Below, in pieces: positions 7,159-28,547 of a stretch of DNA of 32,000 nucleotides. The position numbers were made by a program, and so were the translations under genes. The notes below the pieces were generated by a model. It did not search any database. It was not told the DNA's origin and was given only the letters and a program-made list of their open reading frames with translations. The stretch is from the NCBI GenBank assembly GCA_041661045.1, contig JBAZVE010000001.1, forward strand, positions 180,001-212,000, in the 5' to 3' direction. Source of the DNA: Candidatus Saccharimonadota bacterium. GTDB taxonomy: Bacteria > Patescibacteriota > Gracilibacteria > UBA1369 > 2-02-FULL-48-14. How positions within the stretch are numbered: position 1 is the stretch's first letter; every line of letters begins with the position of its first letter.

Positions 7159-7161
7159 ACC

Positions 7162-8370: not shown

Positions 8371-8381
8371 GAGCGGTATTC

Positions 8382-8409: not shown

Positions 8410-8438
8410 TTGTGTATCCATATTAACCCATACACGCC

Positions 8439-9029
8439 ATGGTGAACTTTACTCCGCGCAAACGCGCGTTCACGCTCATTGAGCTTTTAATCGTTATCAC
8501 CATCATCGGTATTTTGGCCGTTGCTTTGGTGCCACGACTCACCGGTGCTTCCGGCCGTGCACGAGATGCCCAAAGACAAGGTGACCTCCAACAACTCGCC
8601 GTGATGCTGGAACAATACGCCACAGATAATGGAGGGTATCCCGGAACAAGTTCTTGTGCCGGAGAAACCAGTGCTACAGGTTTTGCAACCGTCATGACTC
8701 CTTACTGGACAACGGCTATTGCCGATCCCAGCGGATCTTACTGGGCCGGAACCGGTACTCCTTGTGCGGGTGGCACTACCCCAGAATCCAGCTACGCCTA
8801 CATTGCTTTGCAAACCACTGCCGGTGGACTGGCAGAGGGATACTTACTGATTGCAAACTTGGAAAATGAGAATGCAAGAGGTAAGGGAATTTATGCAACG
8901 AGTTTCAGTGTAAGCACTTCCATCACCGCTGCCGCTAACTTTTCTGCAACCGGGAATAACGAATGTACTTCCGCTGCAGTAACCGGGTGTACCGCAGGTA
9001 CAAATATGATCTATGTTGTGGGTCGATAG
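8439..9029 (+). CDS. type IV pilin (prepilin with N-terminal cleavage/methylation domain)
   Basis: MVNFTPRKRA/FTLIELLIVITIIGILAVALVP shows a class III signal with Glu at +5. There are two Cys pairs, C72...C108 and a C-terminal CTSAAVTGC loop. 196 aa. Confidence 0.92.
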   Translation: MVNFTPRKRAFTLIELLIVITIIGILAVALVPRLTGASGRARDAQRQGDLQQLAVMLEQYATDNGGYPGTSSCAGETSATGFATVMTPYWTTAIADPSGSYWAGTGTPCAGGTTPESSYAYIALQTTAGGLAEGYLLIANLENENARGKGIYATSFSVSTSITAAANFSATGNNECTSAAVTGCTAGTNMIYVVGR

Positions 9030-12100: not shown

Positions 12101-15100
12101 CCACCATCGCCACGCTCAATGCCCAAGCCACCAATGCCGGCTCCCCCAATCTCCCCATTGATGCGACTCGACGCGTTTCTTTTATCGATGCGGAAGGTTT
12201 GGCTCAGGAGCTTGTGTACATCAATGTGTTTGATGCTCAAACTCTTGAAGCTGTCCAAGCACAAGTGGCGGCTTTGGCGGCGGACATGGAAGAAGTTGCG
12301 GGTGGAAATCGTTTTGTGAACACCGTGGAAAATTTTTATACGGGCATCAATGCCGATCAATTGGCGGATGCACTGGAATGGCGTGGACTGAGTATTGATG
12401 CCAAACATCGCTATGTCCTCAGCCATTATCTTGGTGAGGAAGAGCCTGTGGTGGCCAAGGCCCGATCGGGTTATGAAATGGTCTCTTTGATTGCCGATGG
12501 CAATGCTCAAGAGCTTTACTTTGCCTTCAACGGAGACCAGCCGGAAACGGAGGAGGATTTGGAATTTTTATACCGTAGCCAAGCGGAAATCGAGGCTGCT
12601 CTTGCCGCTGCGCAAGCGGATGCTGCGGAAGAGTATGAAGCTTTGGCGCCCGTGAGCGGCACAACGCCCGTGGTGCTGGTGGAATGGATCAATGAAATTC
12701 AAGAATGGCTGCGAGACTTGGAGGACTCTACGAGCAGCTTTACCATCGCCAGTCTTTTGGATGGTGAACAGGTTTGTGGCTCGGCCAGCGCAGCGGAAGT
12801 GGACACCACGGACGCGGACGATGATGGCATTGTGGACAGCGCCGAGGCAACGGGTTCCTTGTTTTTGAGCACGGATGAGTCCACCGTTCTGCAAGCGGGA
12901 GGTGGAGACTATCTCACGGTTTCTGTGGCTGCCAGGAATGCGGACGGAACGATCAATACCGAGGACAGCAGCACCCGAGTTGAACTCCGCATCGTGAGTG
13001 GAACGGAAAGTATTGAGATTCTTGGAACCGCTTCTCTTGTGCTCACGGGTGGCGTGGCGAGCTTCACTCTGGAAAGCGCCGCTGCCGGAAGCTTTGGCCT
13101 GCAGGCCCTTGCCGAGTCCAGAGAGGATATTCGATCGAGCGATGTTTTGAATGGAAGCAGCGAGCCGAAATTTGTGAAACTCAGCACCTATATTACGAAT
13201 TTGGAGCATGCCGGAACCGATACGGTGATGGAGGGGGATCGCATTGAAATCCGTGATGAGGAAGGCACGGTACGAGCCGTTTTGAACCCCATTACCGGGG
13301 ATTTGGATTTACGCAATGCTGTTGTAAAACTTTTGGAGGCCACGGAAGACTTGCCCACACGGATTTCCGTTGAGTCAGGCGAGGGCCTGGTTTATGGGGT
13401 GATCTTTTTGATCCCGGAGGAAGGAGAACTGGACATTCAAGTGCTGCACCCCAGCGCCGGCATTGCTTCCGCGGAAAATGGTACTGCTCTTGAAGAAAAT
13501 GGCGTTCAAATGGGCCTGGTGACAGACCTTGGGCAAATCACTCTTAGCGCCGGATATCTCTTGGATTTTGAGACCCCTTCGAATTTAAATATCTATGATC
13601 CTCTGCATATCTTGAATGATGATGGAGAAAGTTTATTCACGGTGACCCTTGGAACCGCTGACGATGAAGCGAGTGCGGAAATTTTGAAAGATGAAGGCGA
13701 GTATTCCGATTATCTTGGCGCTGTGTTGGGGAAGATTTTGGGGTGGATGGGAGTGGGCAGCGCGAAGGCGGACTCCGTGATCCCTGACTCCGACGGAGAT
13801 CTTTTGGATGATTTGGAAGAGTGGGTGATTGGAACGGTTTTGAGCAATGGAGACAGCGATGGCGATGGCTATTTGGATGGGCTTGAAATTTTCTCGGGCT
13901 ACGATCCTTTGGCTGAGGGCAAGAAACTCTTCACGGATATTGGAATCGAAAATCCTGCGTATCCCGATTTGGCTCTGCTCTATTTGCGAGGTGTGATCAA
14001 GGGGTACACCGATGGCAGTTTTAGGCCGGACAACCCCATCACTCGAGAAGAATTTGTAAAAATTGATCTGGGTGCCATTTGTGAAGACTGCGACAGTTAC
14101 GATGCGGTGTATGAAACGGAGCTCCTGGCCGCCTACGGCTTGGACCCCTTCCCCGATACCACCATCAATCCGGAACTTTTGGCTTGTGTGGCCGAAGCCA
14201 AGGGACGAGAAATTGTGTCCGGGTATGCCGGGGGTGAGGAGGAAGGATATTTTTTGCCCAAACAGTTCATCAGCCGGGCGGAGGCCACCAAGGTTCTTGT
14301 GGAGACTGCTGGCTACAGTGTGGATCCCGTGGCGGAGGGCGAAGTGTGGTACAGCCAATACATCGCCACTGCGGAGGCACACTCTCTTTTCCCGGAAGGC
14401 AGCCCGTTGACCACGGAGTGGTTGGAAGAATCCATCACCCGAGCTGAATTTGTGATGATGGCCGTCAATATGATCGAAGATAAAGACTGTCGTACTCCGA
14501 TGATGGACAGCAATAGAAATGGAATTCCCGATGTGGAAGAACTGGATGATCCTGAGGAAATTCCTGAAGTCCCCGAAATCCCTGGAGTCCCCGATGCATT
14601 TTCCGGCTTTGGCGGATACGAGCATGGCCCAGGACTTTTTGTGGTTTCCCCCAATGCAACCGTGGAGACCATTACCATTGGCAGTGGAGAGGGTCTCACT
14701 CGTGTGAATCTTTTTACCAATGAGATCCCCGCAAATGGGGAGTCTGAAATCTTTGTGCGGGCTGAAATCCGTGATGTGGATGACCATATTTATGCCGAAG
14801 ATGACAGCAGCGTGATTGAGTTTATTTTGTCCAGCAGCGAGCACGGCACTGTGGAGTCCAGTCGTGTCCGTGTGAAGAATGGCGTTGCAGAAACCCGTTT
14901 TGTGGGGACTGACTTTGCCGGAACCGTAACCGTGGAAGGCCGGATCAGTGATGGTTCACTCCCCTCCCAAAATGCGCAAATTCATCTGCTCCCCGGGGAG
15001 CCGGTGCGTGTTGTTTTGGAAGGCGAGTCTCGTGTTCTTCCTGCCGGAGCGGAAGCAAGTACAAATATGAATTTGAGTTTGTATGATTCTTTTGGAAACC

Positions 15101-18100
15101 TGGCCTCCAATGGTTTTTACTCCGTGTCGCTCACTGAAGAAGGGGGTCTTGAACTTTTGGATTTGAATGATGAGGACAGTTCTATGGATGGGATACAAGT
15201 CACGGTCTCGGATGGAGTGCTTCCCTTCCGTGTTCTTTCCTCCCTCACCGTGGGCCAAGCCGGTGTTCAAGCTTCCCTCCCCGAAGTTCCCAATAGCGGC
15301 GATGAATGGTTGATCGACCACAAAGAAAGCATCATCCTTAAAGTTCAACCCACTCAACCGTATCTTCTTGCGGGAAGTGCCGGTTCGGAACTTGTGACGA
15401 TTCAAGCGGTGGATGAACTGGGCTTTCCCGTTTCCGGTTTTCAAGGAGAAGTGGTTTTGAGTCTGAGCGATAGCGGTTTTGGAAGTTTTTCTTCCGAATC
15501 GATTTCCTTGGTGAGCGGCAGTGGCAGCAGCACCCTAAGCCCCGGGACCCTGGCGGGAACGGGGTCTATTCTTGCGGAAAGCCCCGGACTTTTGGGTGGC
15601 AGCGGCCCCTTGGTGGTGAAGCCTGCCGATCCTTATGAGCTTCGCATTCGCAGTGAAGATGGCGACTCGGTGCTTGCCGCGGGAGAACGAGAAAAATTCT
15701 TTATTGAAGCGTACGATGTCTATGGTAATTTTGTGAGCACGGACAGCACCACAAGCGGCTCCCTGCGCCTCACGGACAGCACTGCTGAATTTGGTACGCT
15801 GTCTTCCGGATCCTTTGTGCTCAACCAAGGCCGTGCTTCTGTTTTTGTGACTAGTGGAGAAGTGAGTGGAAAGGTGAGCTTGGTGGCGGCTTCGGAGGCA
15901 CTTTTGGCGGGGACTTGGGGTGGCACCGTGAATTTCACCCTTTCAAGTGAGGAGATTGCCGAGATCGACATGCAAATGCTTTACGCCTCCGTTTTGGGTG
16001 GGCCTTTTGGAGACAGCACCCAAGAAAATTATTTGGGCGCCTGGATGCTCTTTAATGGAAAAACTCAAGCGGTCACCAGTTTGACGAGTGAATCCAAACC
16101 CAAAAACCGTTTGGCCACGATCGATGCGACCGGCAGCATTGTCCTTGCGGAAGATGGGATGGTGAGCCAGGTGGTGCATGGAGCCGGCACGGACCTCCCC
16201 ACTCGTATTCAATGGCGAGAATTCCCCAGCGATGCTTTGCTTGCCGAAATTTTTTACAAGGTGGGAGATCTGAGTGGCGTGAGCCCTGAGCTGCTCACCA
16301 CCGATACTGATTTTGAGTTGGAAGAATCCGACGGCGCCTGGCTCCTGCGAGAGAATGCCGCCGCGGTGCTTAAAATTCGTGAGGATGGGCAAGTGGCCTT
16401 GATGGACCCGAGCTATTCTCTTGCCGTGAATGCGGCGGCGGATGGCCTGAGCCTTGTGGCCCTCAAAAACACGGATCCGGTTCTGCTCATTGATTTTGAT
16501 TCCGCTTGGAATGGCGAGCTCAAAGCCCTGGAAAGTGGTTTTGTTTTGGAAGACTGGGATCGTTTGGAGGATGGGCTTTATCTTAAGCCGACGGCTTTGA
16601 GCGAGCACCGCTTGGAGCCAATTCCAACCGGAAACAGCTCCTTGAATGCCATGGGTCTTGCCCTTGTGGATCCCTCTCAAGAATTGGCGGGAGCCATGCA
16701 GCCCTCCTTGGGCTACCCCAGTCTTGAATCGGCGGAAGACAATGGCAATATTGGTTGGGAGGAGGAGAATAAACACCTTTTGCTTTTTGCCGCGGGCAAT
16801 ACTGTGGGGCAATCGAACCTTTTCTACCCTTCTGAAATTGGAGTGGTTTTGGGAGACCCCACCATTCAACTGCCCACTGCCGGAGACATTGGTGATTTGG
16901 GCTTCACTGCGGATATTGGAGTACCCGTTTCCGCTTCCAATGAAGACATCCATACGCTTTTGGATTTGGATTACAACGGTGACGGAACCATGGATGTTTT
17001 AGCCGCATATGAGGATGGACGCATCGAAGTGCTGCAAAATGCGGACTCCGCCGTTCGTCTCAAAAATCGAGGCGAGCTTTTATTTATTGAAAACGGGATT
17101 TCCTCCATCGGTAAAGGTGACTTCAACAATGACGGATTGGAAGATCTTTTGATCGCCACTGAGGAAGCCTGCTTTGAAGGAGAGATGTGTCTTTATACTT
17201 ACGAAAACATCGGGGGCGGCTTCGTCGCCAAAAACTTAAGTCTCAGTGGTGTGTCCGGCACCCCAAAACAAATCCAAGTGGGTGATTTGAACAATGATGA
17301 TTATGACGACATTGTTTTGGTGGATGAAAATTTGGTGATGAGTGTTGTATGGAATTCTGAGGGTGTGCTTGAAACTGTGAGCCCAATTAAAGATTTTGGA
17401 CTTCAGGCGGATCCGGAAACCAATTTGGGTGGAGAGCTTGTGATTCATCATGAAGGCCTCAGCTCCGGTAGCGTGGGATTATCGGTCTTGAGCGATGAGT
17501 TTGCGAACTCTGATGCCATCAACACGGACTTTGGAGGCTTCCTCAGTGCGGTGAGTGGAGATGATGATTTTGAGAGTGACAGCGAGGGCCTTTCACAAGA
17601 AAAGACGCTTCCTTTTGAATATGCGGATGCCCTCAGTGAGCTCTTCACTGTGAGCAAGTCGTTGAGTGATCCCAACTCCGGGACGGTGGAGATTGGGGAT
17701 GTCTTAACCACCCGCGTCAGCATCCAAAATGTTTCCGGGGCCACCCTTTCGAACATCTATTTCTCCGATACGGATTCCGGTAGCTTTGCGCTCGATTGGA
17801 ATTCTTTGGACAGTGCTTTGGTCCAGGAGGGTGAAGGGTTGCGGCCCTTTATTTATGGTCCTTTTGATCTTAGTAATGGACAGCGCCTGGAGCTTGAATA
17901 CGATCTTTCCGTTCAAGCCCTCCCCGCCCTTTCCGTGCTTCTCGGCCAAGATTTTTACAGTGACTATCGAGATGATGATTATTTGGATATTGCCGTAAGT
18001 CCGGAGGGCGGAAGCGCGGGCGACTTGCTGGTGTTTTACTCTGACGGGGTGGTCACGGAAGTACGAGAGGATGGATTTTTGGGCATCGGAGAGCGAAGTT

Positions 18101-21100
18101 TCCGTCATGTCAATTACCAAGAAAAGAAATATTCTTCTTCCACTTATGAGGAAGAATACACCGATACCGCCCCCTCCCCCCTTGCCGATTCGGATGAAGA
18201 CGGAATCCCTGACTTTATAGAGGGTCTTGATGATGAAAAAGGAATCCCCGTGCCGACCGATGGCAGCTTTGATCCCATTGCGGAGGTGATGGGTGGCCAA
18301 GATACCAATGGAGACTACTACTACTCCCCCGATGAAATGTTCGTGAGTACAGAAGATTCGGATGGGGATGGTCTCCATGATTTGGTGGACGACTGGCTCA
18401 TTGCGGGAACGGATGCCTTGCTTTTGAATCCGGACTTGGATCTCACCGCGGACATTCCGGAACAAGAAATCGAACTGGAGGCTTCTTTCTCTTTCTTGGA
18501 TGAAGAAATTGAAGGGATTACTCAAAAAATAGAAGAAGTGGTGAGCATGTTTACCTGCAATGGGGGCTGTATCGCCTTCCCGGGCAGTGTCGCCTTTTTA
18601 GCACCGGGCGGCTACCACGACCCCACCACCGGAGCCACTATTATGACTGATTATGGGACGCCCATATTTGGCCTTTTGCCTTGGCTTCCCGTGGTGTGCA
18701 GCGGACAGATGTGTTACGCCTCCCAAGTGCTACGGCTGTATTTGGCCCCCACCACTACCTTGGGTCTTGGTATGGGTGTTTGCCTTGGGCAGTATGGCGC
18801 CGGGCAGTGTTTCGCTTTCTCCATCCCCATTCTTCAAGCGCTTGGGCTCTGTGATATGATGAATGGATTCATTACCGAAGCCTTGGCAAAAGCGACTGGC
18901 TTTGTTGCAGAAGGAGCTCAAGTGGCCTTTAATGTGGGGAACATCGTTTCGGTGACCGCGGGCACCAGTGGATTGGAGAGCGCGGTCTTCACCACTTACC
19001 GCCCTCCGGTTGCCGTGAACACCAATATTCAAGTGCCGGGCTTCCCTTCTATTTTCACAGAATGGTGGAAGGCCCAAAAAGAAGAATTCTTTAAGGTGCT
19101 CGACTTGCCCGATATTACTTTTATTTACCCGGACCCCAAGAGTCTCGTCGCCAAACCAAATCCCCTCACGCTCAAAGAAACGAGTGACCTGGCTTCCGCC
19201 GGCCCCCTTGAAAAGATTAAAATTGTGGAACAAGGCATCATGGGACTTGAAAAATGGCTCAACTGGGCTCATGGCCTCCCGCTGATCAATATTGATGTTG
19301 AGCCGGTGGAAGTTCGTTACCCCGCGCTCACGCAAGAAGAAATCGATATCACTCTGGCCAGTATGTATCTTTGGAAAGAGCGAACCGAGCTTGAGTGGTT
19401 GGATTTTAAGAATCAATTTGCTCTGCGGAATGATTTAACCGCCGCCCAAAAAGAGGTGGTGGATGGCATCAATGACACCATGGAGCAGGCCATCACCGCG
19501 GTGGAAGCAAACTTGGCCATTGTGGAAGGCTACTCCGAAATCCCTGAAAAGATTTTGGCGCTGCGGGATTTGGAAGCAACTATTGCTCAAATTATTGTGT
19601 GTTATCTGGATGCCATTTTGGGCAGCACCGCGGGCTATTTGGCTGAGAACGCGCAGCGCATCGAGGCCTGGGGCAATTGGGCTTTGGATATGCGAGACCT
19701 CCTCGATAGTTGGCAGGTGCTCGTCGATCTTTCTGCCGATCTCATGGATTCTTGCGACAAGTGCACCAACCAACGCTACAGCGCCATGCAGCTTTTGTTC
19801 AGTCTCTTTATTTTTATTCCGGACTTCCCCGTGGTGGAACTTCCAAAACTTCCGGACATTGTGATCGATGTGTCCAACATTCAAGGTGGGCTCACCATTG
19901 TGTGGCCGGATCTCAAATTTATACCCGAGCGGCTCAATATTCCAGAATTACCCGTTATTGTGTTCCCCGATGTGGATCTTAAATTGGATGCGGATTTTGA
20001 TTTTGATTTGGATATCCCCACTCTGCCCGTTCCCAATCTTGATATCGAGTTGCCCCCGCTGCCTCCTCTCACCCTACCGAACCTCCCGGATCTTCCCCCT
20101 CCACCGGCCATACCGGCCTTGGATCCTTCACTGGAAGCCGCGCTCAGTATTTCCAGCAATATCTTAAAAATCGTTTGTATCATTCGCCAAGGATTTATTC
20201 CTGTGCCTGAGTTTGCGCTCAAAGCGAAAATTGAAGAAATCACCGAAAGACCCGGCGGCATTATTCTTCCCATTGATTTGGCAATTACGGTGGAGTGGCC
20301 CAAATTCAATTATGACTTTGTAAAGGAGATTCAGGTCAACACCATGATGAACTTCAGTTGGGAGATCACCACTTTTTATGACTTTATCGCCGGCATTGGG
20401 GAAAAGAGCAACGGCATGCTGACGGACTTTGTGCAGGAAAGCATCAACAAGCCTTTGGAAGAGCTCCAAAAAGACATTCAAGATGTGTTTGATCTTTTGG
20501 GTGAACAAGAATGGGACCTTGAAGTGGACGCGGAGTTTGATGGCGAAGCGAGCCCGGATGGCGCGGATGCTTCCACAGATGGAGGGGTGGGGGTTCAAGG
20601 CGATCTTGAGAATGATGGCGAAGACGCTATTCAGGAATTTGAGGATATTGAGGAGGATATTGAGAGTGGCTTTGAGTCCTACCAAGAGGCTATGGACACC
20701 GCGCTGGCCTACAAAGATCACCCTTTGGTGAAACAAAACTTAGCCATGCTCAAGAGCACTTTGGAGACCATGCAAAAAGAATTCAAGGCGTGGGATGCCG
20801 TGATGCCCGATGAAGTTTTGCTTTCCGTGGAATCGCAAGAGCTGGCCTTGGATGATCCTTTGCTTCATCGATTTGATGAGATCCGTCGCTCCCCCAATCT
20901 CGATCAAGACTTTTTGGCGAGCATTGAGGGGACTCCGCTTTCTTCGGTGGTGAGTTTGCGTGATTCCTTGCTTGCGAGTACCGAGGATTTGATGCAAGGC
21001 ACCGTGGCTTTGAAAGGCATGGGAGATGAATCCTTTTACCGTTATTTGGCGGCGGAACAAGTTGGAAATCCCGTGGCTTTGGCGGGCATCGCAGCAGAGG

Positions 21101-24100
21101 GGGAAGCACTTTCTACACGATGGATTGAAGAACTCAATCGTGTTGAGTTGGCTGCAGAGATGGATGACGCGAGTTCTGCCGCGAGTTTCGACTCCGAGAG
21201 TCTTGAGCTTGGCGCTCAAGCGGAATCCACGAACCAAGGTTTGTATATTTATAATTCTGAAACGGGTGTGAGTGAACGATTGGTGGACTACACGCAAGAA
21301 TCCGATGAGGCCACCAGCCTTTTGTTCATGGACATTGATGAGGATGGGGATCAGGACTTGGTCTACTCCATGGGAGGTGATATTTATCTAAAAGAAAATC
21401 ATACTGAGACCGCAAGCGTACGAGCCGTGAGCGAAGACCCACTGGAACGCCGCGTGCAGGATTTGGATCCCGGCCAGGGCAGTGTTCACAATTTGAAACG
21501 AGGTAAAAATGATTACTCAGAGGCAAGCTTCGCGTTCAATGGCGCTGAAACTGCGGTGGGCTATGAAGTGCTTTTGTATGATTCTTTGGATGCCGAGGAG
21601 TCCAACCCCGATGAAAACATTAAAAGACTTTTGCTTTTGAATGAAGGTGAAAATGAAAGCCTACCCTTTGTGGATGAGGAAGAAAATTCGGTTGGAACCT
21701 TGCAAAAGAGCCGGCTTTGGGTGGATGCCGTCAGTGGAAAAGTTTCACTTCAAAATGCCTACCAACGCACCTTCATTGATACCAATGGAGAAATTGAGGT
21801 CGGTGAGGCCGTGATTTTTCAAACCATTGAGAACAGTGTTATTGAGTTTGATTCCGCGAATAGCTCTTCTTCCATCTCCGTTCCTGCCGGTTCCTTGCTT
21901 CACTTCTCGGCGCAAGCGGAACTGCGTTTGCGAGTTGAGCAAGGCTCTGTTTACTGGATTGATGCCACGGAAAAAGTGGACACTCAGGATCTTGAGCAAG
22001 GGATGGAAATTTTTGCGGAAGAGCTGATTGCCTTGGAAAGTTCCGGGGCCGATGCCACCTTGCTCAGCAGCGATGGCCTCTCACTAGATCTGGATCAGGA
22101 AGAACTCTTTGTTATGGACTCTCTTGTGAGTACCGATAATCCTGCGGTCACGGTTCAACTGGAAAATGGGGCTTACTATGCCATCACTCGCGCCCTCTAT
22201 GAAGGAGGCGGGATCGGTACAAAATCTGAAAATATTCTCCTCAATCCTCAAGTGTGTGCGGATGACAGTGAGCCTTATATTTTGGTGGATAACGGCGGAG
22301 ATGAGGATGGCGGTGATGGCTTGGTGGACAGTGATGGGGATGGGGCCTTGGAACTGGCCATTTTCTCCGTGCGTGAGCTTTCTGCCGAGTCTTCTTTCGA
22401 TAGCGACAGTGCGATTGTGGATGCCTATTGGGATTTGGATGACCAAGTGGACAGCGATGGAGACGGCATCAAAAATAATGATGACCAGTCTTTGGGCCTT
22501 ACGACGGAAATTGGGCCTTATGAAGACACGAGAGAGCGCATTGTTACCCTGTATGTCACGGACAGTGCCGGGAATACTGCTGTGCAAGAGATTGCTGTGG
22601 AAATTTATGTGCCTGCCATTGTGCTCACCGAAGCCACGGTGGATTTTGTCCGAGGGATAACGGATCCGCTCAGCCCCGATTTCCCCTTCCATTTGATTCG
22701 CGATCGCAATGGAGTCCTGAAAGAAATAGGAGAAGGAGCCGGCACCGATGCCTATGGGGAAATCTATGAGGAATTGATTCCTTCCAACCGTTTAGCGGTT
22801 TACGATTCCACCGGAGAGGTGGTTGCCGAATTCAATCCCGTCACTAAACAAGTGCTGGTTTACGACTCCGCCTATGCCTCTGCAGTGCTGCCCGCGGGCG
22901 ATGAATGGCCTTCTCGTTTGGTGGTTTACCAAAAGAGCTTTGGGGCCGTGGTGGGCAGTTTCCTCTTTGTGAATTCCGCTTCCACTCAAATCCGTGAGGT
23001 CGCCGTGCCTTTGGAGAATTTGGATCTGTCCATTTACGATTATCCAACGGTCTACACGGTTTCCGATTCCGAGCACTACGAGTTCACGCAAAATTCTTTG
23101 GTTGCACGCAATTCTCTTGGGGCGCTGGAATTTATGCTGAGTCCCAGTGGCAGCATCAGCATCTTTGATGAAAGGTATCACTTGGTGAAACGAGCCGCGA
23201 GTTCTCTGGATGAATATCTTGTGATTGAGGTTTACGATGGTGATCAACTCGAGCTTGAGATCTGGCCCGGAAGCCCCGATGCGCTTCACCTCACCACCAC
23301 GGAAGAGTTGGATCTGCCCGGTTCCGAGCTCTTGAATCCCGGCACTTCCGGCTCCGGCAGCACACGGCTTGTCTTTGAAGATATTGATGAAGATGATCCT
23401 TTGTACAAAAATCTTGTAGAGCTTGTGGAGCGCGGCATTTTGGAGGGGTATACCGAAAACGATGCGCAGTACTTTAAGCCCGATCAAGCCATCAACCGTG
23501 CGGAATTCACCAAGATTATTTTAGGAATCCTTTGTATTGTTCCACGGGATGAGGCGGAGGCACTGCCCTCTGTTTTCAATGATATTTTGGATCCCACCGT
23601 TTGGTATTTTGGAGTGACCAAAGAATCCTTCTTGCGAGAACTCATCACGGGTTACTTGGGAGAAGTCGATTCTGCCGGAGTGGCTCCATTTAAACCCAAC
23701 AAAACCATCAGCCGTGCAGAGGCGGTTAAAATTGTGCTCGAGGCTTTGGATAAAGAAAATATTATTGAGCTTCCGGAGAATCTTGTGGGAGAGCCTTGGT
23801 ACGATCCTTATATGAATATCGCTCAGGATTTGACCCCCTACTTGGTGAGTGATTCCACCGCGGGCAGTGAATCGTTTATTGTGACTAAGGAGGAAGCCAA
23901 AGATCCTTTGCATGAGCTCACTCGTTATGAATTTGTGGAAATGTCTGTTCGTGTACTGGAGGCTTATAACTGTTTCGATTTGGACAGTGATGGAGATGGA
24001 CTCTTCAACATTGACGAAGAGACCGTGTACGGTACCGACCCCTACAATCCCGACACCGATGCCGGTGGCGTGGACGATGGCAGTGAGGTGGACCGAGGCA

Positions 24101-24318
24101 GTGATCCTTTGAATGGAAGGGATGACTTTGCGGATGACTCCGGCGATGGGCTAGAGCCTGGCATTTATGCGGTACAAGAGCCTTGTATTGCTTGTCCTTG
24201 CACTGCCACCATCGATTATGCCGCGGAACTTCGACCGGGGGATACTGTGTTTGCTATAATTCAAAATGCCGCCGGAGAAATCTTTGGAATCAGCAACTCA
24301 TTAACCCTAGAGGAATGA
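9175..24318 (+). CDS. giant (5047 aa) secreted mosaic cell-surface protein with SLH anchors
   Basis: A 15,144-nt ORF without a stop. Signal peptide: MRPRLHSNALKKIVIYGFLMSFLSSLLPMNRVAEA. Motif-level domains: TSP3-like DxDxDG Ca-binding repeats (~10090-10440, 13790-13905, 18190-18400, 23975-24125) and Ig-like Big domains (~12870-13110 plus four in tandem at ~14690-15900). Also FG-GAP/VCBS repeats (~16950-17340, 21320-21400), a PKD-like module (~22500-22620) and two SLH triads. Confidence 0.9.
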   Translation: MRPRLHSNALKKIVIYGFLMSFLSSLLPMNRVAEALSVVGSSDPVVVENPGGSLPELRNTGTVETRYGLVAILVEDSLWSANSGGSGFFSFLGTSGLKQKIQTYAEDVQATLPWTKTVIIQVEDEDTPVEIQRMLERFYFEGNPDDSDFTRLTGVVMVGSVPLPVVNKNGNRFVSLLPYTDFEEPSYLLDETSLDFLPNLEAQNLQAEVWHGLIVPPLDGQEGLDLLAAFFDKNHKFHTGDPEYTSFDEKIFVGDLVTEQSAINPTSYDSYDRFVGLWEELSYYRYTNDLVEDLYTDMQASVEAGDSLDNDGDGNYDEEAANGKDEDGDGLVDEDIGDGFFGIDNDEDGQVDEDHFEDNNNDKGWVYSGYTDSEADTLFSDKMVDEDPPGDSNGDGCPGHCGVDDNGDSEDHDGDGYPTGLEALYGWDWANEKKPWRSVKNWTNGQFGTSFETADAATEYLQEMFVDQFFNDGLRSPTCYASDGSYHSEWDDDEDGFCDEDGSVEMQIWTSPSGGSASGTCAYNDADCDGLIDEDPLGIQPAALFEDLPDIQARDIVGQLTSRYAELFDQPQGVWNRLVDQTGRYETRKSDGETVQNDYDTAISLISKKDEFTLQYLRSLNDNLEAQLNTIVEENLAEDIPIIAGLQITGWVQRAGEGAESICDPEGPVDPDGDKCLQFVNHSGFDNTLFDSEGALTDLDELEPSDYYISGQQLWDVHDANQCTSFAGTDEEGGQLAQFNTLYSRLFSVVAAEMTKADVKDYRNCVPEFASYLEDIPELCDEATVTKEIRVLDGAKTPEAEDTSRWEVGAEACFEFREVFTFNRYSQSVAEFNNWLTNKIRAFRKDGDDDEASYQEFLEKVEEERDRHDPRPDEATLRQPFANLDMIAADASLEYTMEDLLIELGYSAPSDDDIDTFLALQDEIQIENPSEGSGMSGVEELSLSFDKLFLKKDTEELTTLRSEAAEISSFAKHTQPTIATLNAQATNAGSPNLPIDATRRVSFIDAEGLAQELVYINVFDAQTLEAVQAQVAALAADMEEVAGGNRFVNTVENFYTGINADQLADALEWRGLSIDAKHRYVLSHYLGEEEPVVAKARSGYEMVSLIADGNAQELYFAFNGDQPETEEDLEFLYRSQAEIEAALAAAQADAAEEYEALAPVSGTTPVVLVEWINEIQEWLRDLEDSTSSFTIASLLDGEQVCGSASAAEVDTTDADDDGIVDSAEATGSLFLSTDESTVLQAGGGDYLTVSVAARNADGTINTEDSSTRVELRIVSGTESIEILGTASLVLTGGVASFTLESAAAGSFGLQALAESREDIRSSDVLNGSSEPKFVKLSTYITNLEHAGTDTVMEGDRIEIRDEEGTVRAVLNPITGDLDLRNAVVKLLEATEDLPTRISVESGEGLVYGVIFLIPEEGELDIQVLHPSAGIASAENGTALEENGVQMGLVTDLGQITLSAGYLLDFETPSNLNIYDPLHILNDDGESLFTVTLGTADDEASAEILKDEGEYSDYLGAVLGKILGWMGVGSAKADSVIPDSDGDLLDDLEEWVIGTVLSNGDSDGDGYLDGLEIFSGYDPLAEGKKLFTDIGIENPAYPDLALLYLRGVIKGYTDGSFRPDNPITREEFVKIDLGAICEDCDSYDAVYETELLAAYGLDPFPDTTINPELLACVAEAKGREIVSGYAGGEEEGYFLPKQFISRAEATKVLVETAGYSVDPVAEGEVWYSQYIATAEAHSLFPEGSPLTTEWLEESITRAEFVMMAVNMIEDKDCRTPMMDSNRNGIPDVEELDDPEEIPEVPEIPGVPDAFSGFGGYEHGPGLFVVSPNATVETITIGSGEGLTRVNLFTNEIPANGESEIFVRAEIRDVDDHIYAEDDSSVIEFILSSSEHGTVESSRVRVKNGVAETRFVGTDFAGTVTVEGRISDGSLPSQNAQIHLLPGEPVRVVLEGESRVLPAGAEASTNMNLSLYDSFGNLASNGFYSVSLTEEGGLELLDLNDEDSSMDGIQVTVSDGVLPFRVLSSLTVGQAGVQASLPEVPNSGDEWLIDHKESIILKVQPTQPYLLAGSAGSELVTIQAVDELGFPVSGFQGEVVLSLSDSGFGSFSSESISLVSGSGSSTLSPGTLAGTGSILAESPGLLGGSGPLVVKPADPYELRIRSEDGDSVLAAGEREKFFIEAYDVYGNFVSTDSTTSGSLRLTDSTAEFGTLSSGSFVLNQGRASVFVTSGEVSGKVSLVAASEALLAGTWGGTVNFTLSSEEIAEIDMQMLYASVLGGPFGDSTQENYLGAWMLFNGKTQAVTSLTSESKPKNRLATIDATGSIVLAEDGMVSQVVHGAGTDLPTRIQWREFPSDALLAEIFYKVGDLSGVSPELLTTDTDFELEESDGAWLLRENAAAVLKIREDGQVALMDPSYSLAVNAAADGLSLVALKNTDPVLLIDFDSAWNGELKALESGFVLEDWDRLEDGLYLKPTALSEHRLEPIPTGNSSLNAMGLALVDPSQELAGAMQPSLGYPSLESAEDNGNIGWEEENKHLLLFAAGNTVGQSNLFYPSEIGVVLGDPTIQLPTAGDIGDLGFTADIGVPVSASNEDIHTLLDLDYNGDGTMDVLAAYEDGRIEVLQNADSAVRLKNRGELLFIENGISSIGKGDFNNDGLEDLLIATEEACFEGEMCLYTYENIGGGFVAKNLSLSGVSGTPKQIQVGDLNNDDYDDIVLVDENLVMSVVWNSEGVLETVSPIKDFGLQADPETNLGGELVIHHEGLSSGSVGLSVLSDEFANSDAINTDFGGFLSAVSGDDDFESDSEGLSQEKTLPFEYADALSELFTVSKSLSDPNSGTVEIGDVLTTRVSIQNVSGATLSNIYFSDTDSGSFALDWNSLDSALVQEGEGLRPFIYGPFDLSNGQRLELEYDLSVQALPALSVLLGQDFYSDYRDDDYLDIAVSPEGGSAGDLLVFYSDGVVTEVREDGFLGIGERSFRHVNYQEKKYSSSTYEEEYTDTAPSPLADSDEDGIPDFIEGLDDEKGIPVPTDGSFDPIAEVMGGQDTNGDYYYSPDEMFVSTEDSDGDGLHDLVDDWLIAGTDALLLNPDLDLTADIPEQEIELEASFSFLDEEIEGITQKIEEVVSMFTCNGGCIAFPGSVAFLAPGGYHDPTTGATIMTDYGTPIFGLLPWLPVVCSGQMCYASQVLRLYLAPTTTLGLGMGVCLGQYGAGQCFAFSIPILQALGLCDMMNGFITEALAKATGFVAEGAQVAFNVGNIVSVTAGTSGLESAVFTTYRPPVAVNTNIQVPGFPSIFTEWWKAQKEEFFKVLDLPDITFIYPDPKSLVAKPNPLTLKETSDLASAGPLEKIKIVEQGIMGLEKWLNWAHGLPLINIDVEPVEVRYPALTQEEIDITLASMYLWKERTELEWLDFKNQFALRNDLTAAQKEVVDGINDTMEQAITAVEANLAIVEGYSEIPEKILALRDLEATIAQIIVCYLDAILGSTAGYLAENAQRIEAWGNWALDMRDLLDSWQVLVDLSADLMDSCDKCTNQRYSAMQLLFSLFIFIPDFPVVELPKLPDIVIDVSNIQGGLTIVWPDLKFIPERLNIPELPVIVFPDVDLKLDADFDFDLDIPTLPVPNLDIELPPLPPLTLPNLPDLPPPPAIPALDPSLEAALSISSNILKIVCIIRQGFIPVPEFALKAKIEEITERPGGIILPIDLAITVEWPKFNYDFVKEIQVNTMMNFSWEITTFYDFIAGIGEKSNGMLTDFVQESINKPLEELQKDIQDVFDLLGEQEWDLEVDAEFDGEASPDGADASTDGGVGVQGDLENDGEDAIQEFEDIEEDIESGFESYQEAMDTALAYKDHPLVKQNLAMLKSTLETMQKEFKAWDAVMPDEVLLSVESQELALDDPLLHRFDEIRRSPNLDQDFLASIEGTPLSSVVSLRDSLLASTEDLMQGTVALKGMGDESFYRYLAAEQVGNPVALAGIAAEGEALSTRWIEELNRVELAAEMDDASSAASFDSESLELGAQAESTNQGLYIYNSETGVSERLVDYTQESDEATSLLFMDIDEDGDQDLVYSMGGDIYLKENHTETASVRAVSEDPLERRVQDLDPGQGSVHNLKRGKNDYSEASFAFNGAETAVGYEVLLYDSLDAEESNPDENIKRLLLLNEGENESLPFVDEEENSVGTLQKSRLWVDAVSGKVSLQNAYQRTFIDTNGEIEVGEAVIFQTIENSVIEFDSANSSSSISVPAGSLLHFSAQAELRLRVEQGSVYWIDATEKVDTQDLEQGMEIFAEELIALESSGADATLLSSDGLSLDLDQEELFVMDSLVSTDNPAVTVQLENGAYYAITRALYEGGGIGTKSENILLNPQVCADDSEPYILVDNGGDEDGGDGLVDSDGDGALELAIFSVRELSAESSFDSDSAIVDAYWDLDDQVDSDGDGIKNNDDQSLGLTTEIGPYEDTRERIVTLYVTDSAGNTAVQEIAVEIYVPAIVLTEATVDFVRGITDPLSPDFPFHLIRDRNGVLKEIGEGAGTDAYGEIYEELIPSNRLAVYDSTGEVVAEFNPVTKQVLVYDSAYASAVLPAGDEWPSRLVVYQKSFGAVVGSFLFVNSASTQIREVAVPLENLDLSIYDYPTVYTVSDSEHYEFTQNSLVARNSLGALEFMLSPSGSISIFDERYHLVKRAASSLDEYLVIEVYDGDQLELEIWPGSPDALHLTTTEELDLPGSELLNPGTSGSGSTRLVFEDIDEDDPLYKNLVELVERGILEGYTENDAQYFKPDQAINRAEFTKIILGILCIVPRDEAEALPSVFNDILDPTVWYFGVTKESFLRELITGYLGEVDSAGVAPFKPNKTISRAEAVKIVLEALDKENIIELPENLVGEPWYDPYMNIAQDLTPYLVSDSTAGSESFIVTKEEAKDPLHELTRYEFVEMSVRVLEAYNCFDLDSDGDGLFNIDEETVYGTDPYNPDTDAGGVDDGSEVDRGSDPLNGRDDFADDSGDGLEPGIYAVQEPCIACPCTATIDYAAELRPGDTVFAIIQNAAGEIFGISNSLTLEE
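13930..14478 (+). other. internal triple S-layer-homology (SLH) module of the giant protein
   Basis: FTDIGIENPAYPDLALLYLRGVIKGYTDGSFRPDNPITREEFVKI, then FPDTTINPELLACVAEAKGREIVSGYAGGEEEGYFLPKQFISRAEATKVLV, then VWYSQYIATAEAHSLFPEG...ITRAEFVMMAV. These fit the SLH pattern F.D...........G...GY.DG.F.P...[IV][ST]R[AE]E. Confidence 0.6.
23374..23967 (+). other. C-terminal triple SLH module of the giant protein
   Basis: FEDIDEDDPLYKNLVELVERGILEGYTENDAQYFKPDQAINRAEFTKIIL, then FNDILDPTVWYFGVTKESFLRELITGYLGEVDSAGVAPFKPNKTISRAEAVKIVL, then a degenerate third copy ending LTRYEFVEMSVRVLE. Confidence 0.6.
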
Positions 24319-24908
24319 TGCCTTTGCCTCAAAAATTGGAGTCCCGACTTTTCTTGCTTTGCCTCAGCTTGATGCTGGTCTTCAATGGTTTGTTTTATGC
24401 TCTTGCGGAGGAGACAACGGGAGAAACCGTTGCTACCGAGATCGAAGGTGTGGACTATGCCTGCGGGCAGGCTGTGACTGAACAGGCCTCTGTCCTTATT
24501 GACTCTTACCAAACCTTTTTGGATGACTATTTTAAAGTGGATACACCTTCCAGCAGCCAAGTGGATCATGCCATGCGTTACTACCGATACATGGAAAGTT
24601 CCATTGAAGCCATTTATGAAAACAACTTGGATCTTTATGCCAATACGACTCTCCAAGACAGCACCCAGGCGAGCAGTGATTGTGCAGGCAGACGAGATTT
24701 CTATTTGGATGTCGCCCGCGCTCTGCTTCAAAAACAAGTCATCGCTTCTGCGAACAGCAAGCGCACTTTTGAAGTGATCGATGGTCTTAAAATCATGAAT
24801 GCCGATTTGGAAGAATTTTCCGATGAGTTCAATGCTGTCTTCCCCGCTTACTTCAATAAATTCAACAATGCTTTACCCTGTTACGCTCGCCAATGCATAG
24901 TAAAATGA
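24315..24908 (+). CDS. secreted hypothetical protein P1 (197 aa), first of the four-gene cassette
   Basis: The ATG at 24315 overlaps the giant-gene TGA (ATGA). The track ORF from 24183 is an in-frame extension inside the giant gene. Signal-like MMPLPQKLESRLFLLCLSLMLVFNGLFYALA. Ends ...LPCYARQCIVK. Confidence 0.75.
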   Translation: MMPLPQKLESRLFLLCLSLMLVFNGLFYALAEETTGETVATEIEGVDYACGQAVTEQASVLIDSYQTFLDDYFKVDTPSSSQVDHAMRYYRYMESSIEAIYENNLDLYANTTLQDSTQASSDCAGRRDFYLDVARALLQKQVIASANSKRTFEVIDGLKIMNADLEEFSDEFNAVFPAYFNKFNNALPCYARQCIVK

Positions 24909-25543
24909 AATGGTTTAAATGGTTTGTGCTGGCCTTTGCGGCCGGCTTCCTTCTCCCCCATACTTATGGTTCGCTTCTGCTTGCCAGCGTTTTGGATACC
25001 AAGAGCACTTACGACGGCATGACCATGACCGATGCCATTCGAACTTACCATGTGGCCAACACTGTGATTGTGGATGAGTTCTTTTTAAGGCCCCTGTTGG
25101 ACCCGGATTTTGCAACGCTTGGTTATGTTAAATATCCGGACCCGGAAACGGGCTGCGAAAAAAATGTGTCCACTTACTGTTTGGCTTTGGCCTTGGATGA
25201 GAACCTGGTTCAATTTGAAATTTACTTGAGAAAAAGCCAGGATGCCTTGGATTTTGGAACGGCGGAAGAAGGGAGCGAACAGCCCCTCTCCTTGAACGAT
25301 GCCTTGCAAGAAGCCACCTCACAAAGAACCGTGGTGGATCAACAAATCTTGCTGGCGGAAGAGAGCATCGATTTAACTTTGGCCGTGTACAACCAGGTGC
25401 AGTTGGTTTACCCCGTGCACAGCGAAATGCTGAAGTTGATTGGAAACCTGGATGATTACCGCGGGAATTTGGGGGAAATTCGGGACATCGTGGAAAAGTA
25501 TCCTTCTAAATTTAATGGAGCGAGCACCGCTCAATGCCAATGA
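24905..25543 (+). CDS. secreted hypothetical protein P2 (212 aa)
   Basis: The ATG at 24905 overlaps the P1 stop (ATGA); an alternative ATG lies at 24893. N-terminus MKWFKWFVLAFAAGFLLPHTYG is hydrophobic. Ends ...YPSKFNGASTAQCQ. Confidence 0.75.
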   Translation: MKWFKWFVLAFAAGFLLPHTYGSLLLASVLDTKSTYDGMTMTDAIRTYHVANTVIVDEFFLRPLLDPDFATLGYVKYPDPETGCEKNVSTYCLALALDENLVQFEIYLRKSQDALDFGTAEEGSEQPLSLNDALQEATSQRTVVDQQILLAEESIDLTLAVYNQVQLVYPVHSEMLKLIGNLDDYRGNLGEIRDIVEKYPSKFNGASTAQCQ

Positions 25544-27453
25544 AAAAATTCTTTTTATTCGGAATTGGATTGGTTTTGAGCCTTGCTGCCGGCATGTCGG
25601 TAAGCCGGGCTTTGGTTCCCAATGAAGACGATTTGCTTCAGCAAATTTTTGAGGAGGCGGGCATTGAGATGAGTGAAAAAACGGATGCGAAAGAACTCGA
25701 AAATTTGGCGGCCAACAGTGAAGCGCCTTTTTCTGGGCTCTATCTTTTTATGTTACAAAATATTGTGCAAGGGCCACGGGATGCGGCGGCCGTTGAGATC
25801 GCGGAGCGCTTTAAATACACGGAAGATGAAATCAAAAACATTGTTTTGGAAGGCAGCGTGGAGCCCATCATCGACAAACAGCGAGGAGAAGCTTCGGCGG
25901 TTCAATCCCAAGAAGTGGTGGATCAAATGACGGCAGCCGTCACCCAAGGGGATGCGGATTTTGAGACCTTTCTTTCCAGCAATAGTTTTAGCCCCGTCAC
26001 CGAATCTTATCTCCGTTGGCATTATCAAACCTATGAACGCCCCCCCCTTCCCTCCGAAATCGGTACCGTGCTCAGCAATGATTTTGTGCTCAAAGAATTC
26101 ACCGCCATTGGCGATGCTTATGATGATGAGCTTCAATTTCAGGAAGACAACCGGCGCTTGGCTTACGAAACCTTGGCCAGCGAAATGTTCTTCAATAATG
26201 ATTTGGGCGATTCCGCCAATATCGACATTTTGTACGATTTGGATTTGATCCATTATCTTTTGTTTGGCGACTTCATCACCTACCCCGATCGCAGCGGAGG
26301 TTCTGTGGATTTGGCTTCGGAGGAAGCGCTTCAACTTTTCCCAGAGCCGAGCGCAGAGGGCTCTGAGGAAGAAGCCGTGGTGGTTTTGGCGGAAGAGCCG
26401 GCAGAAGCTCCGTTCAATCCCTATGCGTGTTATGCCGATGAAGGCCTCACGGAGGCACTCGATTCCTTCGCTACCAATCCCCCGGATCTTGGTTCAGCGC
26501 TCCCGGAGCCTGAAAATTCTTTTAATTATGAGATTCCCGGACGAGATGGCACGGGCGGCGAGGATGGCAGTGGCGGCAGTGCCGGCACACTTGATGGCGC
26601 AACCGATGGCGAGGCGGGTGGGTCCGGTGGCAGTGGCGGAACGGAGAATCCTTATGCTGTGGATATTGGCGCGGCCTTTGAAGCTTTGGATGCTTTCCTC
26701 CTCTCTTTGGAGATGAAGCCGGGAGATTGGATGCGCACGCTGCCCTGCAGTGGAGTTTTTTGTATCGAAATTAAATTCATCCCCGAAACCAACGACCCCG
26801 AAGTGGATACGGAGCGCATGCAGGCGGATGATTTTGAGCCGACTGAGAACTGCGTCGCGTGCCATACCGCTTATATAAAAGAACGGCTCACCGAAACCAT
26901 GAGCAAGAGCTTGGTGCCCAGCAAAATCACTAAGAATTGGTTTGAAGATGCCACTTGCAAGGATGCCGGCTATCACATCAATTTGGACCTCAATGTGTAT
27001 GCCATTAAAAAGCCCATAGACTTGGATACCGGAGACACACTGGACGACAAAGCCGGTGAAGAAATCGATGAATTTAAAACCCAACTTTTTGGAATTGCGG
27101 GCATCCCTCTTCCGGATGGCTCAGGTGGAATTTTGGGCAAGAGCAAGAGTGAATCGGAATGTGAGAGCCTTTTGAATATTGGAAAAATGGTGGGGACGGA
27201 ACGCAAGATCGACGAACTTTTGGGAAGTTGCCAGAAGGCTGCCGACAGTAATGTGGCCGAGCTGCAAGAAGTTTTTGATGAATTCGTTTATAATATTCAT
27301 TCTCAAACTACCAGTGATTTGTTCTCTCAAGTTTCCAGCGAGCTCTACAGCATGCTTCTCTATTTCCAAAACTTTCAGGGAAGCTTGGAAGCCACCTACC
27401 TCACTGAACAAGCCCCTCTTTCCGTTCTCATTAATAAAGAATACTGCCAATGA
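25540..27453 (+). CDS. secreted hypothetical protein P3 (637 aa) with Gly/Asp-rich linker and Cys-rich module
   Basis: The ATG at 25540 overlaps the P2 stop (ATGA). Signal MKKFFLFGIGLVLSLAAGMSVSRA. Low-complexity GRDGTGGEDGSGGSAGTLDGATDGEAGGSGGSGG (~26540-26650). Then LPCSGVFCIEIKF...ENCVACH...ATCKD. Ends ...NKEYCQ. Confidence 0.8.
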   Translation: MKKFFLFGIGLVLSLAAGMSVSRALVPNEDDLLQQIFEEAGIEMSEKTDAKELENLAANSEAPFSGLYLFMLQNIVQGPRDAAAVEIAERFKYTEDEIKNIVLEGSVEPIIDKQRGEASAVQSQEVVDQMTAAVTQGDADFETFLSSNSFSPVTESYLRWHYQTYERPPLPSEIGTVLSNDFVLKEFTAIGDAYDDELQFQEDNRRLAYETLASEMFFNNDLGDSANIDILYDLDLIHYLLFGDFITYPDRSGGSVDLASEEALQLFPEPSAEGSEEEAVVVLAEEPAEAPFNPYACYADEGLTEALDSFATNPPDLGSALPEPENSFNYEIPGRDGTGGEDGSGGSAGTLDGATDGEAGGSGGSGGTENPYAVDIGAAFEALDAFLLSLEMKPGDWMRTLPCSGVFCIEIKFIPETNDPEVDTERMQADDFEPTENCVACHTAYIKERLTETMSKSLVPSKITKNWFEDATCKDAGYHINLDLNVYAIKKPIDLDTGDTLDDKAGEEIDEFKTQLFGIAGIPLPDGSGGILGKSKSESECESLLNIGKMVGTERKIDELLGSCQKAADSNVAELQEVFDEFVYNIHSQTTSDLFSQVSSELYSMLLYFQNFQGSLEATYLTEQAPLSVLINKEYCQ

Positions 27454-28547
27454 GATTTCCTACTAAAATTCTTTTTTCATTTTTCCTCCTCGCTGGGCTT
27501 GGGCTCTCCGCTGCCGCTGTGCCCGCTCAAGCTCTGGAGATTCCAGAAGGTCTGGAAAGTTTGGCGGAGCCCCTTTGTCCGGGGGCTTGGGCGGACTACT
27601 ATGGCTTTGTGCTGACCGTTCGCAATGAAGATACGCGTCAACAAACCTTCAAAGATTTGTTCACCGTCGGGTACTGTCAACTGTATGATATTTTGGCCTT
27701 GGAAGAGGAGTTGGACAATACCCGTGAGCGCTTCCGTGCCGCGGCTTTTGCCTGCCAAGATACCCAAGCGTACAAAATCGACTACCACCGCATTCTTATG
27801 GAGCAACATTTCATTAGAAACATCCAAAATGAGCCCTCGGATGTGATCAATGTAAAAGATGCGGAACTTTATGAGGAGCTTAAAGAAGAACGACTGAGTG
27901 CCTTGCAAAGCGAGATGCTCGATGCTTTTGTTGTGGAGGAGAAATGGTTGACTGAAGGAGATTTCGAAGATCTTTTTGCGAGCTGGACGGAAAAGTACGA
28001 TGACCGCATTGGAGATTATAGCCAATGTGAAGAAGGTTCCTGGTCTCAGATCCGTGAAACTGTTGAAGAATTTCAAGAAACGATTGATGAACTTCAAGTC
28101 GATGTTAAAAAGAGAGAAAATCTTAATTTTAAAGATAATTTTTCCCTCAGCACCAGCGATTTGGAAAAAGAATTTGAAAACTTAAGATCCACCGGGGACA
28201 GCGCCCTGCACGGTTGGGAGTACTACAAGAACCTCGTGAGTCTTGAAAAAATTGAAGTGGATCCTGCGGCAACGGTGAGTGACCTCACAAGTTCCGGAGA
28301 TGTCTTTACCTTTGGCTCTGCTCTCGACCTTTTGCAAGAAGATATTATAAGGCAAGAGATTGAGGCGCAGCAGGCGGAGCGAAAAGCTCGTTATGCTTTG
28401 CTTTATGGAGAAGGGGGTGCGGCGGCCGCCACGGATATGCAGGCCATTTTGGATGCACTCAACCAAAGCATCGCCGCCTCCAATACCAAAGACCTCCCCG
28501 CTATTTTGGATCGAGTCGCTAAGATCTACGATATGCAGTGCAACTAA
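27450..28547 (+). CDS. secreted hypothetical protein P4 (365 aa)
   Basis: The ATG at 27450 overlaps the P3 stop (ATGA). Signal MRFPTKILFSFFLLAGLGLSAAAVPAQA. Acidic and helical-looking. Ends ...KIYDMQCN. Confidence 0.8.
   Translation: MRFPTKILFSFFLLAGLGLSAAAVPAQALEIPEGLESLAEPLCPGAWADYYGFVLTVRNEDTRQQTFKDLFTVGYCQLYDILALEEELDNTRERFRAAAFACQDTQAYKIDYHRILMEQHFIRNIQNEPSDVINVKDAELYEELKEERLSALQSEMLDAFVVEEKWLTEGDFEDLFASWTEKYDDRIGDYSQCEEGSWSQIRETVEEFQETIDELQVDVKKRENLNFKDNFSLSTSDLEKEFENLRSTGDSALHGWEYYKNLVSLEKIEVDPAATVSDLTSSGDVFTFGSALDLLQEDIIRQEIEAQQAERKARYALLYGEGGAAAATDMQAILDALNQSIAASNTKDLPAILDRVAKIYDMQCN

Follow-up and report, generated by a model that had tools for sequence, protein, structure and literature searches.

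Comparison with described giant surface proteins

To our knowledge, type IV pili (T4P) are the sole experimentally supported factor in host recognition and exploitation by Candidate Phyla Radiation (CPR, or Patescibacteria) bacteria, and the evidence comes from Saccharibacteria. A number of giant surface proteins have also been described in these bacteria. Peribacteria have been reported to possess many large, Cys-rich proteins outside the cell as well as one disulfide-formation protein; in Candidatus Peribacter riflensis these large proteins (14-gene cluster) contain 7.2% Cys and have a mean length of 1,655 amino acids (aa) (Anantharaman et al., 2016; PMC4736985). Giant surface proteins of 1,392-4,163 aa with integrin, PKD, and DUF11-type domains are described from Vampirococcus lugosii and other CPR bacteria, and host recognition together with T4P was proposed for them (Moreira et al., 2021; PMC8080830). 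In Peregrinibacteria, surveys note an unusual abundance of proteins of >5,000 aa that have no functional assignment (PMC11573180). The protein considered here is encoded in a stretch of 32,000 nucleotides (nt), called the window below, from a genome labelled Candidatus Saccharimonadota bacterium (GCA_041661045.1, contig JBAZVE010000001.1, positions 180,001 to 212,000). It is a giant protein whose gene lies between T4P genes and four small genes, P1 to P4. A segment of this protein that is rich in Cys and Gly is the subject of this analysis. The following features are needed to locate it.

9175..24318, + strand: giant open reading frame (ORF) of 5047 aa, with an N-terminal Sec-type signal/anchor, SLH domains, and FG-GAP repeats, very acidic; homologous to 150 giant proteins along most of its length
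18529..20274, + strand: conserved core module of ~580-600 aa (aa 3119-3700), delimited with 387 representatives, a conservation profile, and AlphaFold
18547..18862, + strand: Cys-rich, Gly-rich, hydrophobic segment (aa 3125-3229), a putative compact beta-rich subdomain according to AlphaFold

The window protein resembles the P. riflensis proteins in lineage, in its very large size and export, in its FG-GAP/integrin-like annotations, and in the T4P genes of the genome; a disulfide-formation protein was reported there (PMC4736985). It differs from them in that it has 0.7% Cys and 5,047 aa, with the Cys concentrated in a few modules, and in that it is encoded in a T4P operon. Neither the core domain nor the P1-P4 cassette is described for P. 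riflensis (PMC4736985). A conserved Cys-stapled core or a four-gene cassette was not reported for the Vampirococcus proteins either (PMC8080830). The genetic code is a further difference, as Absconditabacteria use code 25 whereas the giant ORF of the window reads through in code 11.

S-layer-associated proteins that are anchored by S-layer homology (SLH) domains are another point of comparison. The window protein has two Pfam SLH matches, at aa ~1586-1627 (E 6.8e-16) and aa ~4734-4778 (E 4.7e-8), which flank the core, and an NCBI relative is named 'S-layer homology domain-containing protein'. SLH is an anchoring module alone and is uninformative on the core; the precomputed Pfam matches listed for a distant ortholog (P0026) do not include it. 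Like the window protein, PilY1/PilC-type pilus adhesins are large beta-propeller-containing proteins with Asp-rich repeats that are encoded beside pilin genes. PilY1 has ~1,000-1,200 aa and no SLH domains, and it is partnered by minor pilins that carry prepilin leaders. The window protein has no sequence or fold match to PilY1/PilC, and P1-P4 have no match to a prepilin leader and appear by eye to be of the Sec type. There is also a superficial likeness to helical-bundle fusion and translocon proteins, in which an uncharged hydrophobic element stands beside very long helices. However, no match to these was found by Foldseek, there is no heptad or trimer evidence, and the hydrophobic element of the window protein is modelled as a beta domain with a fold of its own.

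The accessible literature holds no account of the core domain or of the cluster of T4P genes, giant gene, and P1-P4. Giant CPR surface proteins are of a known kind; what is new here is that one of them carries a conserved domain not described before and is accompanied by a cassette of conserved partners. The reading that we favour, with moderate confidence, is that the segment is a disulfide-stabilised extracellular beta subdomain in the core of a giant surface protein that belongs to a T4P-linked cluster. The CSGxxC motif which it has in common with P3 is a coincidental likeness.

The Cys-rich segment and the conservation of its cysteines

Translation of 18547-18862 (+ strand) gives 105 aa, aa 3125-3229 of the giant ORF. 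There are seven Cys, C3128, C3132, C3175, C3180, C3203, C3212, and C3226, which is exactly the number given in the initial annotation of this DNA. No other 105-aa stretch of the giant protein is denser in Cys; the whole protein has 36 (0.71%). In 20,000 random placements of these 36 Cys, at least seven per 105 aa was reached by chance with p=0.0018. The segment had also been described as hydrophobic and Gly-rich within an acidic protein, and its composition agrees. Its mean Kyte-Doolittle hydropathy is +0.76 vs -0.19 for the whole protein, ranking 25th among 4942 windows of this length. It contains 16 Gly and just three D/E, while the protein overall has 18.8% D+E and 5.4% K+R. A transmembrane (TM) stretch was taken to be ~19 aa or longer with a Kyte-Doolittle mean above ~1.6. 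None was found in the segment, where the top 19-aa mean is 1.36 (GAGQCFAFSIPILQALGLC).

The Cys of the segment and of the rest of the core are found at the following positions.

18556..18570, + strand: C3128-N-G-G-C3132 (family consensus C-x-G-G-C), both Cys at least 99% conserved
18697..18714, + strand: CSGQMC with C3175 and C3180, accessory Cys pair of a variable loop, specific to one clade, from co-occurrence counts over 132 sequences
18781..18852, + strand: C3203, C3212, and C3226, invariant in the alignment (consensus A-x-C-x-G-P-x3-G-x-C-x-A-F-A ... G-x-C)
19600..19602, + strand: C3476, present in 70% of the family in the alignment
19750..19764, + strand: S-C3527-D-K-C3530, invariant CxxC that closes a long helix (alignment, AlphaFold)
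20176..20178, + strand: C3668, invariant, in the C-terminal helix of the core (alignment, AlphaFold)

The cores of 131 homologs were aligned with the query, for a total of 132 sequences (identity 24-66%, median 33%). Five of the seven segment Cys (C3128, C3132, C3203, C3212, and C3226) are at least 99% conserved in the 131 homologs, as are C3527, C3530, and C3668 downstream of the segment. Conservation of the Cys positions in homologs was one of the checks suggested in the initial annotation, which had proposed a Cys module here. The module is genuine with respect to these five positions; conservation is lacking solely in the two Cys of CSGxxC.

C3175 and C3180 of CSGQMC are both present in 25 of the 132 sequences and both absent in 105, and only two sequences have a single one (phi 0.95). 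When the pair is absent, W-P-P-S-P-Y is usually found instead. The 14 closest full-length orthologs keep essentially all 36 Cys, those of CSGQMC at 100%. CSGQMC thus appears in the alignment as a clade-specific accessory Cys pair that is gained and lost jointly, and because both Cys come and go as a pair, it can be read as an accessory disulfide loop. Cys also stands at another pair of positions, 3417 and 3429, in 84% and 69% of the family members, respectively. Both are Cys in 90 of the 132 sequences, neither in 20, and a single one in 22 (phi 0.6). The giant protein of the window has L3417 (19423-19425) and V3429 (19459-19461) instead. By the same alignment, this pair appears to have been lost in the clade of the window protein, as the mirror image of the gain of CSGQMC.

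One natural variant, P0005, has a core that is 52% identical. C3226, C3476, C3527, C3530, and C3668 are jointly missing from it, and C3128, C3132, C3203, and C3212 are kept. This suggests that there may be two groups of Cys, one within the beta domain and one that joins the end of this domain to the helical part of the core.

Predicted structure and searches for known families

The core was modelled with AlphaFold. A 13-row alignment gave a predicted local distance difference test score (pLDDT) of 49 and this model was discarded; the model used was made with 43 rows and has a mean pLDDT of 73 and a predicted template modelling score (pTM) of 0.45. The segment is predicted as a compact beta-rich domain, with strands at model residues 27-30, 37-41, 47-49, 68-75, 80-86, and 93-99 and block pLDDT values of 74-88. 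CSGQMC is placed in a short helical turn. The segment is followed by a disordered Gly/Ser linker, then by a helix-strand unit built around IPGFPS...W, a motif that is invariant, and by a beta hairpin. Three long helices come next, one of them with 73 residues (block pLDDT 83-96, down to 78 C-terminally), and SCDKC stands at the end of the last. The tail of the model consists of a Pro-rich stretch (block pLDDT 73-93) and two helices that hold C3668. The core module is thus predicted to contain, in order, the Cys-stapled beta domain, the Gly/Ser linker, the long helical bundle, SCDKC, the Pro-rich stretch, and the C-terminal helices.

No significant match to the segment or the core was found in Pfam, NCBIfam, PHROGs, or the PDB sequences. 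Foldseek gave nothing significant (E>2 in PDB, E>0.1 in BFVD) and no likeness to known fusion or pore-forming proteins in these two databases. The remark in the initial annotation that no family could be recognised holds across all of these searches. Its suggestion of membrane insertion finds no support: the 19-aa hydropathy maximum lies below the cut-off and the segment is modelled as a globular beta-rich domain. A hydrophobic helix at aa ~3534-3552, after SCDKC (hydropathy 1.68), was also considered as a TM anchor. It was judged unlikely, as the helix lies between the two SLH domains and contains E or K in homologs.

The family of giant proteins

An exhaustive phmmer search with aa 3100-3700 gave 387 cluster representatives with a cut-off of E<=1e-3, of which 197 reach E<=1e-30. 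Among the best 150 of the 387, nearly all have 3,500-6,000 aa, and the matched ~600 aa are located about two thirds along the protein. Homology of these giant proteins extends over most of their length, with the highest coverage at the core, and the shared core of ~600 aa begins with the Cys-rich segment. A word-index protein search returned zero matches, whether the core or a profile of 13 sequences was used. Since the exhaustive search found 387 representatives, these negatives are a limitation of the tool and are untrustworthy for proteins of this type. Ten homologs have the source names 'uncharacterized repeat protein', 'S-layer homology domain-containing protein [Candidatus Gracilibacteria bacterium]', or 'hypothetical protein'. 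When the species representatives of GTDB were scanned, 21 loci were obtained, all in metagenome-assembled genomes of Candidatus Peribacteria, Peregrinibacteria, Gracilibacteria, or the 'Patescibacteria group'. In the NCBI taxonomy, Peribacteria is a class within the phylum Peregrinibacteriota. The family has a sharply conserved core of ~600 aa with eight near-invariant Cys.

The giant protein has other conserved Cys outside the core. An N-terminal region with 12 Cys (aa 397-813, 10363-11613) is 93-100% conserved. A C-x-x-C-P-C motif is present at the C-terminus (aa 5004-5009, 24184-24201); its conservation over 14 orthologs is 87%, and it can also be seen in the consensus of the family.

Possible function of the segment and alternative explanations

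The N-terminus of the giant protein is a signal-like sequence and SLH domains flank the core, which together indicate that the protein is exported. The segment would then be the N-terminal, beta-rich, disulfide-stapled subdomain of a core module of ~600 aa. This module is the best-conserved part of putative secreted surface proteins of 3,500-6,000 aa in CPR bacteria of the Peribacteria/Peregrinibacteria/Gracilibacteria type, and the window's protein carries SLH domains that could bind it to the cell wall. The Cys would be structural cross-links of an extracytoplasmic protein. A first putative group (C3128, C3132, C3203, and C3212) would lie within the beta domain, and a second (C3226, possibly C3476, C3527, C3530, and C3668) would tie the end of this domain to the helical bundle. 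CSGQMC could be an additional local loop disulfide that one clade has gained. The uncharged, hydrophobic composition with much Gly and Pro may reflect a tightly packed small domain and possibly a protein-protein interface within the apparatus, with no transmembrane segment. The case for disulfides rests on export, on the near-invariant Cys, on the gain and loss of variable Cys in pairs, and on the presence in Peribacteria of a disulfide-formation protein and large Cys-rich extracellular proteins (PMC4736985).

Several points weigh against this interpretation. The CNGGC loop has low confidence in the AlphaFold model (pLDDT <50, model residues 11-16), and the assignment of two Cys groups depends on one natural variant, P0005. 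A typical core contains 11 Cys, an odd number, and therefore at least one Cys is free, paired outside the core, or part of an intermolecular bond. The invariant CxxxC and CxxC are also spaced as is typical of Cys4 metal sites, and these Cys are equally possible as metal ligands. The main rival to disulfides is a metal-binding module, in which C3128-x3-C3132 and C3527-x2-C3530 (perhaps joined by C3226 or C3668) would hold Zn or an Fe-S cluster and clamp the beta domain to the helical bundle. The odd number of Cys would suit such a site, as would the absence of the CxxC from P0005 along with three other Cys. However, the giant protein is exported, its variable Cys are gained and lost strictly as local pairs in the manner of disulfides, and no match to metal-binding families was found in Pfam, NCBIfam, and the other searches. 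In addition, P0005 keeps the CxxxC while it loses the CxxC, and thus the four Cys do not form one obligatory site. We consider a metal site unlikely. A membrane-engaging element is a slightly weaker candidate again. Here a beta domain like a fusion loop or a pore-forming protein, at the end of the helical bundle, would insert into the host membrane during episymbiotic or predatory contact, together with the pilus. In favour of this, few windows of the giant protein are more hydrophobic or less charged than the segment, which contrasts with the extremely acidic remainder (18.8% D+E overall); the segment adjoins helices of up to 73 residues, and its gene is in a T4P operon of a lineage that is thought to be host-dependent (PMC8080830). 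Against this, it has no hydrophobic window of TM length, its compact beta fold is predicted with good confidence, Foldseek gave no match to fusion or pore-forming proteins, and its conserved residues are Gly, Pro, Thr, and Cys and not an aromatic or aliphatic loop.

The initial annotation offered another explanation, in which a disulfide or metal module containing CSGxxC is present in both the giant protein and its neighbour P3 and serves as their docking interface. Three features of P3 bear on it; L023 and L024 are the loci of two distant relatives.

25534..27453, + strand: P3, 639 aa, secreted, with seven conserved Cys (299, 405, 410, 440, 443, 475, and 638) in the ortholog alignment
26746..26763, + strand: P3 CSGVFC, family motif LPC[SNGDT][DEGK][VI][FY]C, with C-x6-C in L023
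26851..26865, + strand: P3 C-V-A-C-H (CxxCH), aa 440-444, in 18 of 19 orthologs

The motifs themselves were located correctly, CSGQMC at nt 18697-18714, CSGVFC at nt 26746-26763, and ENCVACH and ATCKD in P3. P3 is also the co-translated partner it was said to be, a translationally coupled neighbour that strictly co-occurs with the giant gene across loci. Both proteins contain a literal C-S-G-x-x-C, and composition shuffles gave a nominal post-hoc p of ~0.005-0.015. This p carries no weight, as neither protein family conserves the residues in common. The Cys pair is missing in 105 of the 132 giant proteins. Over 17 orthologs of P3, the motif has S in four and G in one, solely the P3 of the window. 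The Cys pair of P3 is itself conserved in 18 of 19 orthologs, with a loop of variable length. In the closest orthologs P3 has CNDV[FY]C while the giant proteins of the same loci carry C[TA]Gx[MA]C, such as CTGQMC. BLASTP found no similarity between the segment and P3 (E=19), and hhalign with the two family profiles gave a probability of homology of 0.1-0.2%. As far as these alignments can tell, the likeness of CSGQMC and CSGVFC is coincidental. A docking interface built on a CSGxxC module common to the two proteins is very improbable given these counts and comparisons, and for this motif it is refuted by the very condition that the initial annotation had set. A misleading lead in the form of a 'shared motif' is thus removed. 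It is possible that P1-P4 dock somewhere on the giant protein, without any tie to CSGxxC.

Within P3, Cys 299, 405, 410, 440, 443, and 475 are kept in 17 of 17 closer orthologs and C638 in 16. C-V-A-C-H has the pattern of c-type heme attachment; L024 has CVLCE instead. P3 was considered as a cytochrome c and this was rejected: there was no match in Pfam or NCBIfam, the best PDB profile match was to cytochrome c554, over 15 residues (E=0.46), and in L024 another residue takes the place of the His.

The gene cluster

The favoured interpretation, a disulfide-stabilised subdomain of a surface protein, also includes a connection to T4P, which comes from the neighbouring genes.

4177..9029, + strand: type IV pilus genes, upstream of the giant gene, in the same order in L019, L023, and L024
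5908-7158, + strand: T2SSE ATPase (PF00437, E=2.5e-125)
7162-8370, + strand: T2SSF platform protein (PF00482, E=2.6e-51)
8439-9029, + strand: prepilin with N-methylation motif (PF07963, E=1.1e-8)
24318..24908, + strand: P1, 196 aa, secreted, four conserved Cys; its start overlaps the stop codon of the giant gene
24893..25543, + strand: P2, 216 aa, secreted, three conserved Cys in the ortholog alignment
27450..28547, + strand: P4, 365 aa, secreted, five conserved Cys in the ortholog alignment

The pilus set begins with genes for proteins of 385 aa and 194 aa, which are PilM- and PilN/O-like by position alone and have no significant family match. The ORFs of P1-P4 have overlapping stop and start codons, and every one of the proteins has an N-terminal signal-like sequence. 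P1 was found in 17 of 17 loci that reach past the 3' end of the giant gene, and P2-P4, in the same order, in 16 of 16 that reach far enough. The cluster is retained as a whole in L023 (GCA_013824265.1) and L024, where the core is ~33-36% identical. In both, two unknown proteins come first, then the ATPase, PilC, pilin(s), and the giant protein, with four small proteins last. In all three loci (the window, L023, and L024), the opposite strand further downstream carries genes for HTH_17 and UvrA. The giant family is thus locked into a T4P operon, always with four secreted, Cys-containing partners behind it.

Other relationships within and around the cluster were considered. Homology among P1-P4, or between P1-P4 and the core, was rejected, as all hhalign probabilities are <=10.2%. 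A radical SAM gene (2837-4081) lies directly before the pilus genes and was considered as a maturase of the Cys segment. It is not syntenic in L023 and L024, where a hydrogenase and ribosomal genes are found upstream of the cluster, and judging from gene order it is probably unrelated to the cluster.

P1-P4 each have a conserved Cys 1-5 residues from the C-terminal end: C193 in P1 (24894-24896), C215 in P2 (25535-25537), C638 in P3 (27445-27447), and C364 in P4 (28539-28541). These are kept in 16-17 close orthologs and in the distant L023 and L024, with the P3 of L024 as the exception. The numbers of conserved Cys in P1-P4 are 4, 3, 7, and 5. They are odd in three of the four proteins, which may point to intermolecular disulfides. 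Because the conserved Cys are odd in number in P2, P3, and P4 and stand near the C-terminus in all four proteins, and the core typically has an odd number as well, a covalent assembly can be imagined. The core would be the hub of a surface machine, with P1-P4 disulfide-linked to the giant protein or to each other, and the Gly-rich beta domain would contact or perturb the host envelope together with the type IV pilus. We regard this larger scheme as improbable. If it were true, it would be a host-contact apparatus specific to the Peribacteria-type class of CPR bacteria. Apart from this scheme, the conserved core and its cluster make up a concrete module for experiments, with a defined domain boundary to guide expression and a choice of disulfides and partners as candidates.

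A strong terminator-like hairpin is present at 9050-9075; it directly follows the pilin gene, and the giant ORF begins 100 nt further on. It has an 11-bp stem with eight G-C pairs and a T tract. Given this hairpin, transcript levels may be higher for the pilin gene than for the giant gene and P1-P4.

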